NCBI GenBank assembly: GCA_037441745.1
Contig: JBBIRP010000001.1
Coordinates: 1-37,719, forward strand
Direction: 5' to 3'
DNA: 37,719 nucleotides
From: Ignavibacteriales bacterium
GTDB taxonomy: Bacteria; Bacteroidota; Ignavibacteria; UBA10030; SZUA-254
A program made the translations under genes and the position numbers. Positions 20,341 through 26,608 of the stretch are shown in pieces (the first letter of the stretch is position 1; each line of letters begins with the position of its first letter). The notes under the pieces were generated by a model. The model ran no database searches, was not told the origin of the DNA, and saw nothing but the letters and a program-made list of their open reading frames with translations.

Positions 20341-20369
20341 CCCCTATCAATTATAGATAGGGGTTTTTT
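20341..20369 (+). terminator. Rho-independent terminator closing the respiratory island
   Basis: The stem is cccctatc / gatagggg (8 bp) with a 7-nt loop, followed by tttttt. It lies 46 nt after the ccmF-like stop. Confidence 0.6.
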
Positions 20370-20561
20370 ATTTAATCTTTTAATGATTAGTTAAATTGTA
20401 CAATCTATAAGTGAAGCAACAAATTACAGGTCAACAAATCGTATAATAAATCATTTTTGAGATTAAAACCCATTCCAAATTTTCTCTTTTGAAAATCAAG
20501 TCTTAATATCTCACTCAAATTAATATTATTCGACTTAAATACAATATCTATAGTAGGCATA

Positions 20562-20589
20562 ATAATTGATATTTATAAATATCAATTAT
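20562..20589. promoter_or_regulatory. 28-bp perfect palindrome (candidate operator or leader hairpin) ending 2 nt before the MerR-family start codon
   Basis: ATAATTGATATTTA|TAAATATCAATTAT equals its own reverse complement. A sigma70-like TTAAAT(20535)-N17-CATAAT(20558) lies upstream, and its -10 hexamer overlaps the left arm. Confidence 0.5.
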
Positions 20590-20591
20590 AT

Positions 20592-21044
20592 ATGAGATCA
20601 GAAATTATTCAAAATCCAGATACACCTATTTATCCAATACGAACCGCTGCAAAGATGCTTGGAATTTCGGTTTATACATTAAGAATGTATGAACGCGCAG
20701 GACTGATTTTACCTTTTCAAAAAGAATCGAGCCATCGACTTTACTCAGATACAGACATAGAACGATTGAAATGCATCCGTCGCGCAATCAATGAAGAGAA
20801 AATTAGTATTGCTGGGATACAAAGAATTCAAGCTTTGATTCCATGCTGGGAAATTGTACAATGCTCTCAACGAGATAGAAACCAATGTGAGGCATTTAGA
20901 AATCATACACAAGCATGTTGGACATTTAATCATTTGAAGAATAAATGTAAGAAACGCAACTGCAGGTCTTGTCCCGTTTACAAAGAATTTATCGACTGTT
21001 CTAAAATTAAAAACAAGATTATTGAGTTAACAGAGAAAATATGA
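20592..21044 (+). CDS. MerR-family transcriptional regulator with a Cys-rich C-terminal domain containing two CW pairs
   Basis: The N-terminus is a MerR HTH (IRTAAKMLGISVYTLRMYERAGLILP...RLYSDTDIERLKCIRR). The C-terminus has 8 Cys in ~55 aa: CWEIVQCSQRDRNQCEAFRNHTQACWTFNHLKNKCKKRNCRSCP...DC. ATGA overlap with the downstream molybdoenzyme gene. Confidence 0.85.
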   Translation: MRSEIIQNPDTPIYPIRTAAKMLGISVYTLRMYERAGLILPFQKESSHRLYSDTDIERLKCIRRAINEEKISIAGIQRIQALIPCWEIVQCSQRDRNQCEAFRNHTQACWTFNHLKNKCKKRNCRSCPVYKEFIDCSKIKNKIIELTEKI

Positions 21045-23230
21045 ATTCGATTTCAAGAAGAAAATTTTTAAAAATATCTGGTGCTACTATTTCAACAGCA
21101 GTTGTGATTAATAAAGTCTCGAAAGCATTAGAAAAAACTGATGCAGCAAATCAGAAAGGTATTAAAAAAATTCCGACTTTTTGCGATTTATGTTTCTGGA
21201 AATGTGGTGCAATTGCTTACGTACGTGATGGTAAATTGTGGAAGATCGAAGGTAACCCGATTGATCCTCTTAGCGGGGGACGGTTATGTCCGCGTGGAAC
21301 AGGTGGAATCGGCGCACATTACGATCCAGATAGATTACGCTCGCCATTGATTCGCACACAAGAACGCGGAAAAGAAATGTGGAAGGAGGTAACATGGGAT
21401 GAAGCTCTAGATTTTATCGTGGAAAAAATGCAGATTATCAAAGCAAAATATGGTCCAGAATCTATGGCAATGTTTAGTCATGGTATTGGTGGAAATTTTT
21501 TAAAGCATACACTGAAAGCATTTGGCGTAATAAATTTTGCCGCGCCCTCATTTGCACAATGCCGCGGACCAAGGGATGTCGGTTTCAAGTTAACCTTTGG
21601 CGAAGACGTCAGTTCCCCGGAACGAACAGATATTAGAAACGCTCAATGTCTCGTGCTTATCGGCAGCCATCTTGGTGAGAATATGCACAACACACAAGTA
21701 CAAGAGTTTGCAGAGGCGATTGATAATGGTGCATCGATCATAGTAGTTGACCCGAGGTTCTCCATCGCTGCAAGTAAAGCAAAATTTTATCTACCAATAA
21801 AACCCGGAACCGATCTCGCGCTTTTGCTTGCATGGATGAATGTCATCGTTACTGAAAATCTCTATGATAAGGAATATGTCGAGAAATATGGATTCGGCTT
21901 TGAACAATTCAAGGCGGAGATTTCGTCTTACACTCCTGAGTGGGCTTACCCAGAAACAGGCATTGAGCCAAAGCTTATCCTTTCAACAGCTCGCGAAATG
22001 GCTCGTTACAAACCAGCGGCTTTAATCCACCCAGGTAGGCACGTCAATTGGTATGGCGATGATGCACAACGAAGTAGAGCAATTGCTTTACTAAATGCAC
22101 TTTTAGGAAGTTGGGGAAGAAAGGGTGGATTCTATTATCCGGTAAGTATGGATGTCCGATCGTATCCATATCCAGCTTATCCAAATCCGACGAAAGAAAA
22201 AGTCGATAATCCTAATAAAAAATATCCGTTCGCAGATGAAGCGATTACAACTGGAATTCGTGAAGCAACTCTCACAGGTAATCCGTATCCTATCAAGGGA
22301 TGGTTTGTTTATGCAACAAACCTGATGCAAGCGTTACCAAATGGAGAAATCACTAAACAGGCGATTCAGAATTTAGATTTGATGGTTGTTGTCGATGTAA
22401 TCCCAAGCGAGATTGCAGGTTGGGCAGATGTAGTATTACCAGAATCGGTTTATCTTGAGAGATATGATGATTTAAATGTTGAGTGGTTTCGTGAACCTTT
22501 CATTGCTTTGAGACAACCAGTCGTTGAATCACCAAATGATCAAAAACCGAATTGGTGGATTGCAAAAAAACTTGCTGAAAAATTAGGACTCGGAAATTAT
22601 TTCCCTTGGAAAGATATTGAGGAATATTTCAATTATCGACTGACTGCGGCTGGATTAAGTTTTGACGAGTTGAGGAAGAACGGTATCATACTCGGGGCTA
22701 AACAGCCAATCTATTTTGATGAAGGCGTACCAGCAGAATTTCCAACTCCATCGGGGAAGATTGAATTCTACTCCCCTCAACTTCAACAAGCGGGATTTGA
22801 TCCTGTGCCGAAATATAAACGTCCTTCAAATGGACCTGTTGGGTCGTTCAGATTGTTATATGGCAGGGCATCCGTACATTCATTTAGTCGAACTCAATCT
22901 AACAGAATTTTATCCGATATGATGTCTGAAAACGAAGTTTGGATTAATACAATTATTGCAGAACGTTACGGGATAAAAAACGGTGACTATATAAAATTAA
23001 AAAATCAGGATGGCGTGATGAGCAATAAAGTAAAAGTCAAAGTAACAGAAAGAATAAGGCCCGATTGTGTTTTCATGGTACACGGTTTTGGCCATACCGC
23101 AAAAGGATTGAAACATGTATACTTAAAAGGTGCAAGCGATGCACAATTGCTTACCCGATACGAAATTGATCCATTAATGGGTGCAACTAGCATGAATATG
23201 AATTTTGTAACAATTGAGATTGGGGATTAA
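21041..23230 (+). CDS. Tat-exported molybdopterin oxidoreductase catalytic subunit, polysulfide/thiosulfate reductase (PsrA/PhsA) family
   Basis: Tat motif SRRKFLKISG. FS0 motif CDLCFWKC-x27-CPRG. A candidate Mo-ligand Cys sits in SFAQCRGPR. The gene is followed by FeS and NrfD genes and by sulfur-transfer genes. Confidence 0.85.
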   Translation: MNSISRRKFLKISGATISTAVVINKVSKALEKTDAANQKGIKKIPTFCDLCFWKCGAIAYVRDGKLWKIEGNPIDPLSGGRLCPRGTGGIGAHYDPDRLRSPLIRTQERGKEMWKEVTWDEALDFIVEKMQIIKAKYGPESMAMFSHGIGGNFLKHTLKAFGVINFAAPSFAQCRGPRDVGFKLTFGEDVSSPERTDIRNAQCLVLIGSHLGENMHNTQVQEFAEAIDNGASIIVVDPRFSIAASKAKFYLPIKPGTDLALLLAWMNVIVTENLYDKEYVEKYGFGFEQFKAEISSYTPEWAYPETGIEPKLILSTAREMARYKPAALIHPGRHVNWYGDDAQRSRAIALLNALLGSWGRKGGFYYPVSMDVRSYPYPAYPNPTKEKVDNPNKKYPFADEAITTGIREATLTGNPYPIKGWFVYATNLMQALPNGEITKQAIQNLDLMVVVDVIPSEIAGWADVVLPESVYLERYDDLNVEWFREPFIALRQPVVESPNDQKPNWWIAKKLAEKLGLGNYFPWKDIEEYFNYRLTAAGLSFDELRKNGIILGAKQPIYFDEGVPAEFPTPSGKIEFYSPQLQQAGFDPVPKYKRPSNGPVGSFRLLYGRASVHSFSRTQSNRILSDMMSENEVWINTIIAERYGIKNGDYIKLKNQDGVMSNKVKVKVTERIRPDCVFMVHGFGHTAKGLKHVYLKGASDAQLLTRYEIDPLMGATSMNMNFVTIEIGD

Positions 23231-23232
23231 TC

Positions 23233-23772
23233 ATGGCACGATTTGGAATGGTGATTGACACGAAAAAATGTGTCGGCTGCATGGATTGTGTTGTCGCTTG
23301 CAAAACTGAAAACGATGTACCCGAAGCATTCAATCGTGATTGGATTGTGCAGGATGTGCGTGGTAAAAATCCCAATCTCCATATGGAAATCAGAACCGAG
23401 CGATGCAATCATTGTGATCATCCTCCGTGTGTTTACTGTTGTCCAACTGGCGCAAGCCATGTACACGATCTCGGTGGTATCGTACTTGTGACTCACGATT
23501 TATGTATCGGTTGCAAGGCATGTCTCGCGTCATGCCCGTATGATGCACGATTTATTCATCCCGAGGGCTATGCAGATAAATGTACATTTTGTGTTCACCG
23601 GGTTGAAAAGGGGTTGGATCCAGCATGTGTTTCTGTCTGTCCGACTCATTGCATGTACTTCGGAGATTTTGATGATCCTAACAGTCAAGTAAGCAAGCTT
23701 CTTGCATCAAGGGAAAATCATTCATTGATTCCCGAAACTGGGACAAGACCACAAATATTTTATTTAGTGTGA
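23233..23772 (+). CDS. Four-cluster [4Fe-4S] electron-transfer subunit (PsrB/PhsB-like)
   Basis: Cys motifs CVGCMDCVVAC, CNHCDHPPCVYCCP, CIGCKACLASCP and CTFCVHR...ACVSVCP. Confidence 0.9.
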   Translation: MARFGMVIDTKKCVGCMDCVVACKTENDVPEAFNRDWIVQDVRGKNPNLHMEIRTERCNHCDHPPCVYCCPTGASHVHDLGGIVLVTHDLCIGCKACLASCPYDARFIHPEGYADKCTFCVHRVEKGLDPACVSVCPTHCMYFGDFDDPNSQVSKLLASRENHSLIPETGTRPQIFYLV

Positions 23773-23778
23773 GATAAT

Positions 23779-24726
23779 ATGCATGAATACACAATAACAC
23801 GACATAATGAAATGATTGATCCATCTCTGCATATCTGGGGATGGGAAATTTCAGTCTATCTTTTTATAGGCGGTTTGGTTGCAGGTATTATGATAATAAC
23901 TGGATATTTTATTTTTAAAGGTAAATATCTGGATAAGAATTGTGTCTGCAGAGTTTTACCATTGTTGGGGATGATCTTATTGAGCTTGGGTATGTTTGCG
24001 TTGTTTTTAGACCTTGAGCATAAATTATATACCTGGCGATTATACTTAACGTTCAAGATCGCTTCCCCAATGTCTTGGGGTGCATGGATCTTGGTCGTTG
24101 TATATCCTGCAAAGATTACAAGTTTCTTCGTTAATGTTTCTGAATATTTTTCAAAAAGATTTCAATGGATGAACAGAATGTCCGAAAAGTTACAAGAACA
24201 TAAATATTTAATCAAGACTATCGGAGTTGTTAATATGTTGCTGGGTGGATTTCTTGGTATTTACACTGGTGTTTTATTAAGCGCGTTAGGTGCTCGACCA
24301 TTATGGAATAGTTCTATGTTATGGATGTTGTTTGTAATTTCTGGTTTATCTTCAGCAGCAGCATTTGTTCATCTGGTGGCAAAGAATATTGATGAAAGAG
24401 AATTACTTGCTAAAGCTGATAATGGCTTTTTAATAATTGAAATTTTTGTGATAAGCTTATACTTGATTGGAATGATTACATCCACAAAAGTTCATATACA
24501 ATCGGCAATGTTATTGTTAAATGGAATATTCTCACCAGCATTTTGGGTATTCGTGATTGGACTTGGAATCGTTATTCCATTGACTATCCAATTATTAGCA
24601 GTAAATCATAAAATCAAACATACACCAATTGCACCAATTCTTGTGATAACAGGTGGATTGATTTTACGATTTATAATTGTCGAAGCAGGACAATATTCAC
24701 GCTGGATAGACGCAGCATTTAAATGA
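23779..24726 (+). CDS. NrfD-family membrane anchor, short 8-helix form (PsrC/PhsC-like)
   Basis: 315 aa with about 8 hydrophobic helices. It is the third gene of an A-B-C molybdoenzyme operon. Confidence 0.85.
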   Translation: MHEYTITRHNEMIDPSLHIWGWEISVYLFIGGLVAGIMIITGYFIFKGKYLDKNCVCRVLPLLGMILLSLGMFALFLDLEHKLYTWRLYLTFKIASPMSWGAWILVVVYPAKITSFFVNVSEYFSKRFQWMNRMSEKLQEHKYLIKTIGVVNMLLGGFLGIYTGVLLSALGARPLWNSSMLWMLFVISGLSSAAAFVHLVAKNIDERELLAKADNGFLIIEIFVISLYLIGMITSTKVHIQSAMLLLNGIFSPAFWVFVIGLGIVIPLTIQLLAVNHKIKHTPIAPILVITGGLILRFIIVEAGQYSRWIDAAFK

Positions 24727-24817: not shown

Positions 24818-25360
24818 ATGTCATCAAAACAAAATGAAATTCAACACTTTCAAAAGCCGTACTGGAATCCATATTTATCAGGCATAGGTTTGGGTTTTGT
24901 GCTTCTTTTATCTTACGTCATAATGGGTCGTGGACTTGGTGCATCGGGTGCATTCTCAACACTTGTGGCAACAAGTATCAATGCGATTACTCCAGAGCAT
25001 GCAAGAACAAACGAATTCTACTCTGAATATATATCAGATACAAGTAAAAGTCCGCTGAAGGATTGGTTGGTATTCGAAGTTCTCGGAGTTTTTACTGGCG
25101 GGTTTATTTCCGGTGCGCTCGCAAACAGAATCAAGAAAACAATTGAAAAAGGGCCAAATATATCCATACGCAGCCGATTAATTTACGCTTTCATCGGTGG
25201 TTCGATAATGGGTATCGGTGCAAAACTTGCACGTGGCTGCACAAGCGGTCAGGCATTAACGGGTGGCGCCGTACTTAACGTTGGTAGTTGGGCGTTTATG
25301 CTAGCCGTTTTCGGTGGAGCTTACATGATTGCATATTTTTTTAGGAGACAATGGAAATGA
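24818..25360 (+). CDS. YeeE/YedE-family sulfur-compound transporter, half-size subunit 1
   Basis: A polytopic 180-aa protein with the family-typical conserved Cys loop, LARGCTSGQALTGG. Confidence 0.8.
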   Translation: MSSKQNEIQHFQKPYWNPYLSGIGLGFVLLLSYVIMGRGLGASGAFSTLVATSINAITPEHARTNEFYSEYISDTSKSPLKDWLVFEVLGVFTGGFISGALANRIKKTIEKGPNISIRSRLIYAFIGGSIMGIGAKLARGCTSGQALTGGAVLNVGSWAFMLAVFGGAYMIAYFFRRQWK

Positions 25361-25956
25361 ATATTCCTTTTTATAAATATGGATTATTTGGCGATGATGT
25401 TAGTTTAGTCGTTGCATTTGTCATCGGCATTGGTTTTGGATTCTTCTTGGAACGTGCCGGATTTGGGAATGCTCGTAAACTTGCTGCTCAATTTTATTTT
25501 AACGACATGACTGTATTCAAAGTAATGTTCACTGCAATTATTACAGCAATGATCGGTATTTATTATTTATCTGTACTTGGTTGGATGGATTTGTCGTTAG
25601 TCTACTTAAATCCGACCTATATTGTTCCACAAACCATCGGCGGTTTAATACTTGGTATCGGATTCGTAATTGGTGGATATTGCCCTGGAACTTCATGCGT
25701 TTCAGCGGTTACCGGAAAAATTGATGGAATGATCTATCTACTCGGTATCATTTTTGGAATATTCATTTTCGGTGAAATATTCCCACTAATTAGTAACTTC
25801 TATAACTCCACACCTATGGGGCAGATTACACTCCCACAGTTACTCAACATTACATATGGTGTCTTAGTGTTTGCCGTTGTGATGATGGCGATTGGTGGAT
25901 TTGCTGTTGCTGAATGGGTAGAAAAAAAACTTGGTAATAAAATAATGGAGCCATGA
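25351..25956 (+). CDS. YeeE/YedE-family sulfur-compound transporter, half-size subunit 2
   Basis: A polytopic 201-aa protein with the conserved loop GGYCPGTSCVS. It overlaps the upstream gene. The alternative start ATG 25357 has better spacing from aggag (25343-25347). Confidence 0.8.
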   Translation: MEMNIPFYKYGLFGDDVSLVVAFVIGIGFGFFLERAGFGNARKLAAQFYFNDMTVFKVMFTAIITAMIGIYYLSVLGWMDLSLVYLNPTYIVPQTIGGLILGIGFVIGGYCPGTSCVSAVTGKIDGMIYLLGIIFGIFIFGEIFPLISNFYNSTPMGQITLPQLLNITYGVLVFAVVMMAIGGFAVAEWVEKKLGNKIMEP

Positions 25957-25957
25957 A

Positions 25958-26608
25958 ATGAAAAACTTTTTTCAAAATTTATCATTGAATAAAAAACTTG
26001 CATGGATTGCATTCATACTTGGATTAGCGGCAATATTTGCTGGTAATCCATACAAAGGCAATTCATTTTCTCTTGATGCAAAAGAATTGGCACTGATCGT
26101 TGAAAAAGAAGTTGACCACATTGATGTAGAAGAATTAGCAGATTGGATAATACAGGGCAAAGCAGATTATCGTCTAATTGATTTGAGATCGGAGAAAGAA
26201 TTCAACGAATATCACATTCCAACAGCAGAGAACGTTCAACTATCGGGGATAAACAATTACCCTATGCTTAGAAATGAAAAAATTATTCTTTACTCCCAGG
26301 GTGGTATACATTCTGCGCAAGCATGGATGCTTTTAAAAGCTATAGGGTACAAAGCAGTTTATATTCTTCGCGGAGGATTAGAAGAATGGACCGATAAAAT
26401 ACTTTTTCCAATACTTCCTCAGAATCCAAAACCTGAAGAAATTGCTTCATTTAAAAAGTTAATAGATGTCAGCAAATTTTTCGGTGGCTCTCCGCAAACT
26501 AGCGGTAAAGAAGAATTACTTGCAAAGAAACCCATGCCAAAACCTGAGATGCCAAGCACCACATCTGCGCCAGCCATAGCAAAGAAGAAGAAGAAAGAGG
26601 GGTGTTAA
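25958..26608 (+). CDS. Membrane-anchored rhodanese-homology-domain protein lacking the active-site Cys, with a Pro/Lys-rich tail ending in Cys
   Basis: Rhodanese fold motifs: LIDLRSEKEFNEYHIPTAENV ... IILYSQGGIHSAQAWMLLKAIGY ... LRGGLEEW. The catalytic-loop position is Ser (YSQGGIHS). The only Cys in the protein is the last residue (...KKKKKEGC). N-terminal helix LAWIAFILGLAAIFAG. Confidence 0.8.
   Translation: MKNFFQNLSLNKKLAWIAFILGLAAIFAGNPYKGNSFSLDAKELALIVEKEVDHIDVEELADWIIQGKADYRLIDLRSEKEFNEYHIPTAENVQLSGINNYPMLRNEKIILYSQGGIHSAQAWMLLKAIGYKAVYILRGGLEEWTDKILFPILPQNPKPEEIASFKKLIDVSKFFGGSPQTSGKEELLAKKPMPKPEMPSTTSAPAIAKKKKKEGC

Follow-up and report, generated by a model that had tools for sequence, protein, structure and literature searches.

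A MerR-superfamily regulator with a divergent two-CW cysteine-rich domain heads a polysulfide/thiosulfate-reductase-type operon of an Ignavibacteriales bacterium: a probable, hitherto undescribed sensor of sulfur or redox state

The control of polysulfide, thiosulfate and tetrathionate respiration outside the Proteobacteria is largely unexplained. A stretch of 37,719 nucleotides from an Ignavibacteriales bacterium (assembly GCA_037441745.1, contig JBBIRP010000001.1, positions 1 to 37,719; hereafter the window) raises this question anew, because a small regulator gene at 20592-21044 overlaps the first of a set of psrABC-like genes: what does its product sense, and how does it act on the genes behind it? 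Published work mentions such a gene only as a MerR-like or MerR family regulator before psrABC in Melioribacter and Ca. Thermonerobacter (PMC3534657, PMC5492636, PMC6338057). Our analysis revealed a regulator with a minimal MerR-type head, a conserved cysteine-rich tail and a well-defined DNA site in front of its gene. Judged from these sequence features, the protein is probably a sensor of sulfur or redox state that has not been described before. The features that carry the argument are the following.

20555-20569, plus strand: sigma-54-type -24/-12 promoter-like element AGGCA-N6-TTGA, with a predicted start near 20581 (TGGCA-N6-TTGA consensus in relatives).
20562-20589, no strand assigned: perfect 28-bp palindrome; its conserved core, the 20-bp dyad TTGATA-N8-TATCAA at 20566-20585 (about -15 to +5), is the proposed operator (alignment of related promoters).
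20592-21044, plus strand: regulator gene, 150 amino acids, minimal MerR-type (GlnR/TnrA/HspR-like) head and two-CW cysteine-rich domain (open reading frame [ORF] from ATG to TGA, Pfam, NCBIfam, homologues, AlphaFold2).
20631-20831, plus strand: winged helix-turn-helix, residues 14-80 (Pfam MerR_1, E 9e-17; nearest structures GlnR/TnrA).
20841-21002, plus strand: divergent two-CW domain, residues 84-137, with 8 Cys and followed by a terminal helix, 136-148 (NF045718, profile searches, hhalign, alignments, Foldseek).

To which family does the DNA-binding head belong? Residues 14-80 matched Pfam MerR_1 (PF13411) with 61.4 bits (cut-off 21.6), and Pfam MerR (PF00376) was also over its cut-off (34.9 bits vs 28.2). 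By Pfam gathering cut-offs the protein is thus a member of the MerR superfamily, in agreement with the helix-turn-helix described in the initial annotation of this DNA. The top NCBIfam model was HspR (NF047375), with 64.1 bits and under its cut-off of 105; TnrA (22.9 bits, cut-off 140), MerR (39 bits, cut-off 150.85) and SoxR (TIGR01950; 20 bits, cut-off 116.9) scored lower still. Membership in the HspR, SoxR, MerR, CueR and ZntR families was in each case ruled out by the curated cut-offs, and the CX2CXCX5C motif that holds the [2Fe-2S] cluster of SoxR is absent from the sequence. In a sequence search of the PDB, GlnR/TnrA proteins were closest (4r4e and 7tec, E 7.7e-14 to 8.5e-14). The same folds headed the Foldseek comparison of the full-length AlphaFold2 model (predicted local distance difference test [pLDDT] 93.4, predicted template modelling [TM] score 0.84) with the PDB, at TM scores of 0.72-0.85 normalised on the target, and all matches were made via the head. 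The initial annotation had also assumed a dimerisation helix, but the model shows only an 8-residue helix (73-80) before the cysteine-rich domain; later helices are short, the longest being 136-148, no helix exceeds 13 residues, and the long coiled-coil dimerisation helix of MerR proteins is missing. By profile and fold, the head belongs to the minimal GlnR/TnrA/HspR-like branch, a resemblance of the head only. A ninth Cys, C61, lies in the DNA-binding domain (20772-20774, LKCIRR); it is invariant in 30 of 30 sequences of the Ignavibacteria clade and kept in 80% of the wider family, and may serve as a ninth ligand or as a reactive thiol.

The tail follows the pattern P84-C85-W86-x4-C91-x7-C99-x9-C109-W110-x8-C119-x4-C124-x2-C127-x8-C136. 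The string of cysteines noted initially was right in every element but one, since the second C-W dipeptide is followed by x8 rather than x9. A word-indexed search retrieved 163 homologous clusters, all of about 140-170 amino acids; most stem from metagenome bins of the Ignavibacteria type. When 30 and 47 homologues were aligned, the eight tail Cys, both Trp, P84, Y130 and K140 were invariant or near-invariant. In a set of 123 sequences that includes distant members, Cys 85, 91, 99, 109, 124 and 127 were present in 122-123, whereas C119, C136 and C61 were kept in only about 80-83%; H105 and H114 were kept in 58-67%. Because six Cys are near-universal and the other three are not, the core of the tail is, as judged by conservation, a Cys6 motif to which two or three clade-specific Cys were added.

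What is this domain? Its sole NCBIfam match was NF045718 (two_CW_domain), with 11.7 bits and E 0.25 over residues 88-137, under the cut-off of 35; the same model was over its cut-off in 0 of 21 related genomes and 0 of 14 model genomes. We searched 1.84 billion representative proteins with a profile of 47 tails and obtained 287 matches, mostly MerR fusions. The remaining matches comprised chemoreceptors with tandem C-terminal copies, a histidine kinase, an OmpR-type/MerR fusion, and stand-alone proteins of 60-90 amino acids. Four matches passed NF045718 (P0202, 93 bits; P0228, 91 bits; P0248, 61 bits; P0205, 39 bits). An hhalign comparison of the tails with seven bona fide two-CW segments gave a probability of 98.5% and E 3.8e-15, with all seven core Cys in register and 10 residues fewer in the tail between the fifth and the sixth. 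By this alignment, the tail is a divergent two-CW domain missed by the curated NF045718 model. The likeness of the double CW pattern to a two-CW domain, suggested in the initial annotation, was thus borne out, though under the NF045718 cut-off, and the domain search proposed there for residues ~80-150, run with Pfam, NCBIfam and hhalign, returned this remote homology.

Searches with E up to 10 yielded no match of the tail alone in Pfam, no match of the tail profile to PDB sequences, and no Foldseek match of a tail-only model (pLDDT 89.3) in the PDB. Bona fide two-CW proteins had no Pfam family either, only a sub-threshold match to DUF2769. No recognised iron-sulfur (Fe-S) motif, family or fold match was seen in the tail by Pfam, PDB sequence or Foldseek searches. 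In the literature, the phrase "two-CW domain" occurred in no paper that our search found, and work on Cys-rich or Fe-S chemoreceptor domains and on Fe-S MerR regulators held nothing relevant. With no Pfam family, PDB or Foldseek match or paper, the earlier description of an uncharacterised effector domain for the MerR family stands.

Which DNA would such a protein read? A scan of species-representative genomes gave 353 matching stretches, the 80 best loci of which were used for the neighbourhood and promoter counts. The composite sequence TGGCA-N6-TTGATA-N8-TATCAA was present upstream of the regulator gene in 74 of the 80 loci, with TGGCA at a fixed distance from the dyad. TGGCA and TTG were invariant at exact spacing in these 74 loci, while the right dyad arm varied, 45 of 74 having C at its centre, which implies that the left arm also serves another function. 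Sigma-54 promoters have the consensus TGGCAC-N5-TTGCW, with GG at -24 and GC at -12. TGGCA-N6-TTG matches the sigma-54 -24/-12 spacing exactly, with A in place of the consensus C at -12, and the window itself has AGGCA. The predicted start near 20581 leaves a leader of 11 nucleotides. In our reading, the site combines a sigma-54-type promoter with an overlapping putative operator of the regulator.

The genome from which the window comes encodes rpoN and about eight AAA+ enhancer-binding proteins. It contains nine intergenic, correctly oriented GGCA-N6-TTGA sites within 250 nucleotides of a gene start, as compared with 0-1 sites for TTGA at spacings of 4, 5, 7 and 8, two for GGCA-N6-TTGC and five for GGCA-N6-TTGT; canonical TTGC sites are almost all intragenic. 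The TTGA sites precede genes for glutamate dehydrogenase, alanine dehydrogenase, Hsp20 and hemerythrin and a lipoprotein gene just downstream of an enhancer-binding-protein gene, several of which are typical sigma-54 targets, and another precedes the citrate synthase gene. The sigma-54-type promoters of this genome seem to read TGGCA-N6-TTGA. No sigma-70-type promoter was found on the plus strand upstream of 20592, and the 74 aligned promoters have no conserved -10 element at the distance needed for a canonical MerR operator. A classic MerR promoter with a 19-20-bp spacer and a Bacteroidetes-type -33/-7 promoter were both tried around the dyad and misfit the conserved positions. Further upstream, fixed-position words in relatives point to one more element:

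20480-20500, plus strand: upstream element TTTTCTCTTTTGAAAATCAAG (TTTTC-N6-GAAAA), 55-75 nucleotides upstream of the -24-like element.

Among 73 related promoters, TGAAAA (27), TTTCTT (27) and AAAGAA (25) each fell in one fixed 10-nucleotide bin upstream of TGGCA. The upstream element is a candidate enhancer-binding-protein or IHF-type site, and the fixed words lie where binding of an activator is to be expected.

Other promoters of the same genome gave some additional observations. TTGA sites lie at C184:625-642, C52:5178-5195, C148:3371-3388, C2:12277-12294, C44:7233-7250 and C269:1044-1061. About 60-110 nucleotides upstream of position 625 on C184, the glutamate dehydrogenase promoter has TTATCATTAATGAAAT twice in direct tandem, resembling a site for an enhancer-binding protein. 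At C44:7233-7270, another sigma-54-like promoter has a different palindrome, TGACTCT-N5-AGAGTCA, across its -12 element; this genome may make repeated use of dyads placed at -12.

Within its own genome, the composite site has no further copy, and the dyad is not present at other sigma-54-like promoters. In related loci, there were 17 additional copies, which head second regulator paralogues, operons with a CMD gene and MoaA-MoaC-MOSC-MoeA-MobA (7 loci), and Rieske plus cytochrome b-multihaem operons (5 loci). These molybdenum cofactor (Moco) and Rieske operons do not start with a regulator gene, as confirmed with Pfam on locus L057; the site thus marks a small regulon and not just autoregulation. 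In the loci with a Phs-type operon L021, L028, L041, L045, L053, L057 and L066, a TGGCA-N6-TTGATATTTATAAATATCAA site also stands about 4.5 kb and about 8 kb upstream of the regulator. The extra sites there belong to a CMD-family gene with the Moco operon and to a Rieske gene with a 926-amino-acid cytochrome b-multihaem fusion, so that three operons share one kind of site. A distant Calditrichota-type clade of regulators does not share the TGGCA-N6-TTGATA site, and the promoter architecture is therefore specific to the Ignavibacteria clade.

What does the regulator gene head? Its operon and the 5' boundary of the unit are made up as follows.

20341-20363, plus strand: intrinsic-terminator-like hairpin after the ccmF-like gene (8-pair stem with 5 G-C pairs, then the T-run TTTTTTATTT), 5' boundary of the unit.
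21041-23230, plus strand: PsrA/PhsA-like molybdopterin catalytic subunit, 729 amino acids, exported by twin-arginine translocation (Tat) (Pfam Molybdopterin, Molydop_binding, Molybdop_Fe4S4).
23233-23772, plus strand: PsrB-like 4Fe-4S electron-transfer subunit (Pfam, NCBIfam).
23779-24726, plus strand: PsrC/NrfD-type membrane anchor (Pfam).
24818-25956, plus strand: two overlapping half-size YeeE/YedE (Sulf_transp) genes, 24818-25360 and 25351-25956 (Pfam, NCBIfam).
25958-26608, plus strand: rhodanese-domain protein, final gene of the operon (Pfam).

The hairpin parts the operon from the upstream ccmF-like gene. As stated in the initial annotation, the regulator stop (TGA, 21042-21044) overlaps the psrA-like start (ATG, 21041-21043) in an ATGA at 21041-21044, and the identical 4-nucleotide overlap recurs in related Psr-type loci (e.g., L009, L039, L049 and L051). 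The catalytic subunit begins with a Tat-type SRRKFLK motif and has PhsA as its nearest NCBIfam model (530 bits, under the cut-off of 694). By gene order and predicted functions, the regulator is the first cistron of a polysulfide/thiosulfate-reductase-type operon that continues with psrABC-like genes, the split YeeE/YedE and the rhodanese gene.

The same-strand genes downstream of the regulator in the 80 loci were classed by BLAST against reference proteins and by Pfam checks.

12 of 80 loci: PsrABC (NrfD anchor) with split YeeE/YedE and rhodanese, as in the window.
12 of 80 loci: Phs-like molybdenum (Mo) subunit, Fe-S subunit and cytochrome b561 with YeeE/YedE and rhodanese.
20 of 80 loci: octahaem Cytochrome_cB protein, cytochrome b561, YeeE and YeeE-rhodanese fusion.
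9 of 80 loci: Pyr_redox_2 flavoprotein, DUF1641, DsrC-like and DsrE-like proteins.
11 of 80 loci: multihaem cytochrome c, cytochrome b561 and multihaem cytochrome c.
15 of 80 loci: other neighbours.
1 of 80 loci: no downstream sequence.

A respiratory or sulfur operon lay directly downstream on the same strand in 64 of the 79 informative loci, and sulfur-handling genes in 53. With 24 of the 79 of the Psr or Phs type, the linkage to psr-like operons proposed in the initial annotation extends to relatives. The gene is accessory: it was found in 48 of 151 genomes of the class (32%) and in 28 of 84 genera, at 1-2 copies each, and it is single-copy in the window's genome. The suggestion that distribution and neighbourhoods be compared thus led to an accessory gene with a respiratory module behind it. 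A distant clade, some proteins of which are assigned to the Calditrichota in source records, heads in 4 of 4 cases a pair of about 310 and 542 amino acids, a DsrMK-like unit with a Fer4/CCG (DsrK/HdrD-like) protein. Operon type was clustered on a maximum-likelihood tree of the regulators (23 changes vs 50.3 in shuffles, 0 of 200), and it switched repeatedly. The window's regulator falls into a clade with 100/99 support together with two Psr-type regulators and one of the flavoprotein/DsrC type, and the close sisters in loci L001 (Psr type) and L003 (flavoprotein/DsrC type) head different operons. Melioribacteraceae loci carry two paralogous regulators, one heading each of two adjacent operons; at L060 (3778-4185 and 10001-10411), and likewise at L070, L074 and L077, these are the psrABC-YeeE-rhodanese and the flavoprotein/DUF1641/DsrC/DsrE operons.

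Several loci deviate from this scheme or carry further genes. At L051:5561-9580, an octahaem/cytochrome b/YeeE operon without a regulator of its own stands directly upstream of the regulator-psr operon and has a degenerate composite site. Genes for FadL/TodX-type outer-membrane channels were found in or beside these operons (L015:10383-11882, L058 and L060:14432-15676), and in the window's genome a FadL-like gene follows a sigma-54-like TTGA promoter on C5 near 7489; such channels may be an uptake route for hydrophobic sulfur species. The Mo-subunit gene is broken into two or three ORFs at L018:10441-12250 and L045:10472-13320; a frameshift, faulty assembly or a pseudogene may account for this.

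How would the regulator act? We think it fairly probable that it is a dedicated regulator encoded by the first cistron of the operon that it controls, and that it represses from the dyad until released by a sulfur or redox signal at a centre in the two-CW domain. The dyad half-site resembles that of the HspR operator (HAIR site, CTTGAGT-N7-ACTCAAG), a TTGA-type inverted repeat. A regulator dimer is proposed to bind the 20-bp dyad because of this resemblance and because HspR is the nearest named family. A regulator bound to the dyad would lie over the -12 element and the start site and should therefore repress by blocking the sigma-54-type promoter, and because that promoter is its own, the regulator would be self-regulated. 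The tail replaces the MerR dimer helix and keeps 6-8 Cys in 55 residues, and for this reason the two-CW domain very probably carries a metal-thiolate or Fe-S centre, the state of which would govern dimerisation or DNA affinity. A shift in the state of this centre with reduced or sulfane sulfur species, or with the redox state of the cell, would make the regulator leave the DNA; an enhancer-binding protein at the conserved upstream elements would then provide activation. The binder of the site, repression rather than activation, the cofactor and the signal are what we infer from these data.

As to the signal, reduced or sulfane sulfur ranks first, with chances that we put somewhat below even; general redox, O2 or nitric oxide (NO) comes second, and a thiophilic metalloid is a minor option. 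Sulfur is favoured because the contexts are those of YeeE/YedE, rhodanese, DsrC/DsrE, DsrK-like and Psr/Phs genes. Given that close sister regulators head different operon types, one common signal is to be expected rather than operon-specific ligands. This signal need not be polysulfide itself, since relatives also head multihaem-cytochrome and DsrMK-like operons. In Melioribacter roseus, where psrA stands behind a MerR-like gene, the psrA transcript was negligible in aerobic, microaerobic and anaerobic fermentative cells and sharply up in arsenate-respiring cells (PMC5492636). These data argue against a plain anoxia switch, and they do not separate arsenic from sulfur.

A number of points weigh against repression from the dyad and release by sulfur or redox. 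The -12 element reads TTGA instead of the canonical TTGC, and a linked enhancer-binding-protein gene occurred in only 3 of the 80 loci, each 8-10 kb away. We know of no MerR-type protein that acts at a sigma-54 promoter. Of the two dyad arms, the left doubles as the -12 element and is the better conserved, so that part of the palindrome's conservation may reflect the promoter and not an operator. Eleven loci head multihaem-cytochrome operons and 15 have other neighbours, so that the signal need not be sulfur alone. Induction by arsenate in M. roseus may speak for As(III); moreover, MROS_1773 of M. roseus is only presumed to code for a two-CW domain. DNA binding, cofactor and ligand are all predicted.

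Other explanations have to be weighed against the same evidence. The two-CW domain may be a structural zinc-thiolate dimerisation module only, with a protein partner, rather than a small molecule or a redox change at the Cys, as the switch. GlnR and TnrA are switched by glutamine synthetase and HspR by DnaK, so that the closest heads are all partner-controlled and lack a ligand pocket; a domain that replaces the MerR dimerisation helix must at least give dimer contacts, and 6-8 invariant Cys in so small a domain are what a structural metal site typically shows. We nevertheless regard this explanation as unlikely, given that two-CW domains also occur on chemoreceptors (in tandem, C-terminal), on a histidine kinase and as stand-alone proteins, a pattern typical of a sensor input module, and that no partner gene accompanies the regulator across operon types in the 80 loci. 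A slightly lower likelihood still is given to an FNR-like sensor of O2, NO or general redox state, in which an O2-labile Fe-S cluster turns on anaerobic-respiration operons whatever their substrate. It would account for the fact that each of the operons is a quinone-linked module of anaerobic electron transport, some with multihaem cytochromes that have no evident tie to sulfur, for the lack of NF045718 in the 14 model genomes and for sister regulators that swap operon types. M. roseus psrA, however, was negligibly expressed in anaerobic fermenting cells (redox potential -130 mV) and up only with arsenate respiration (PMC5492636); as its transcript was negligible even in strictly anaerobic fermenting cells, anoxia alone is insufficient in this bacterium.

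Arsenate respiration leads to a metalloid or soft-metal sensor, in which As(III), thioarsenate or a thiophilic ion would bind the Cys as in ArsR and MerR proteins and the Psr-like enzyme would be an arsenate reductase. Clustered Cys do bind As(III) avidly. Arsenate-grown M. roseus strongly induced the psr/phs gene after the MerR-like gene, and the authors of that study proposed its product as the main arsenate reductase (PMC5492636). Most contexts among the 80 loci, however, hold YeeE/YedE, rhodanese, DsrC/DsrE or DsrK-like genes and no ars genes, and a more widespread signal is to be expected of a domain that many anaerobes also have on chemoreceptors and kinases. The induction is itself ambiguous, since arsenate in sulfide-reduced media can yield sulfur(0) or polysulfide; in sum, a metalloid sensor is improbable. 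An ordinary HspR heat-shock repressor, as the database names of many homologues have it (several source annotations read "heat shock protein HspR"), agrees with the best NCBIfam match at 64.1 bits. It is very improbable, because that score is far under the cut-off of 105, none of the 80 loci has adjoining chaperone genes, the gene is accessory (32% of class genomes), and HspR has no Cys-rich domain.

The preferred reading, that the regulator is probably a repressor and leaves the DNA when a metal or Fe-S site senses sulfur or redox state, can be extended. Two-CW domains would then be a new metal or Fe-S cytoplasmic sensor of sulfane or thiosulfate-derived sulfur on transcription factors, chemoreceptors and histidine kinases, the MerR-fused form of which, in Ignavibacteria, represses at sigma-54 -12/+1 regions as the master switch of a respiration regulon that comprises Psr/Phs, octahaem cytochrome, DsrC/DsrE, Moco biosynthesis and Rieske/cytochrome b operons. 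Taken as one joint claim, this is possible but rather doubtful. What is new here is a conserved, structurally unmatched Cys-rich module on a regulator, which recurs on chemoreceptors and kinases, together with a clearly delimited DNA site as the mark of a small respiration regulon. Were the module to sense sulfur or redox state by a new metal centre, it would be a new sensor class and a usable biosensor part. Sediments and groundwater are rich in uncultured Ignavibacteria and Calditrichota, the sulfur-cycle gene expression of which would then also become easier to predict. Should the sigma-54 link hold, the MerR superfamily would gain a new regulatory architecture, with the first of its proteins known to gate sigma-54 transcription.

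How does the regulator compare with known systems? With the members of NF045718, its tail shares the two C-W dipeptides and seven aligned Cys; it differs in lacking about 10 residues between Cys five and six, in having an eighth Cys (C136) and, within the clade, two near-invariant His, and in its fusion to a DNA-binding domain rather than to a chemoreceptor or kinase. GlnR/TnrA of Bacillus, Staphylococcus and Listeria (4r4e, 7tea, 7tec, 4r22) and HspR have the same type of winged helix-turn-helix and no long coiled coil, and the proposed operator is, as in HspR, a TTGA-type inverted repeat. In contrast, their partner-binding C-terminal tail is replaced by the two-CW domain, every curated cut-off is missed, and their targets are nitrogen or chaperone genes, whereas our regulator heads respiratory and sulfur operons behind a promoter that looks sigma-54-type. 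SoxR, which senses redox via an Fe-S cluster, and MerR, CueR, ZntR and CadR are alike in the MerR-superfamily head and a Cys-based, in our case putative, C-terminal sensor. As the regulator lacks CX2CXCX5C, the coiled-coil dimer helix and the sigma-70 promoter with a 19-20-bp spacer and central dyad, it is neither a canonical MerR-type activator nor SoxR.

Among sulfur-responsive regulators, CstR (CsoR family), SqrR/BigR (ArsR family) and FisR (a sigma-54 enhancer-binding protein) are likewise Cys-based and stand beside sulfide or sulfane-sulfur operons, with SQR-like flavoproteins, rhodaneses and DsrE/TusA-type carriers; FisR acts at sigma-54 promoters. Their folds are unrelated, and they use 2-3 reactive thiols without metal, whereas 6-8 invariant Cys in our regulator suggest a metal or cluster site and its putative link to sulfane sulfur comes from gene context. 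FNR is an analogy only, in that a Cys-ligated cluster could govern dimerisation or DNA binding at anaerobic-respiration operons; it has a CRP family fold, another Cys motif and the site TTGAT-N4-ATCAA, as compared with TTGATA-N8-TATCAA for the regulator described here.

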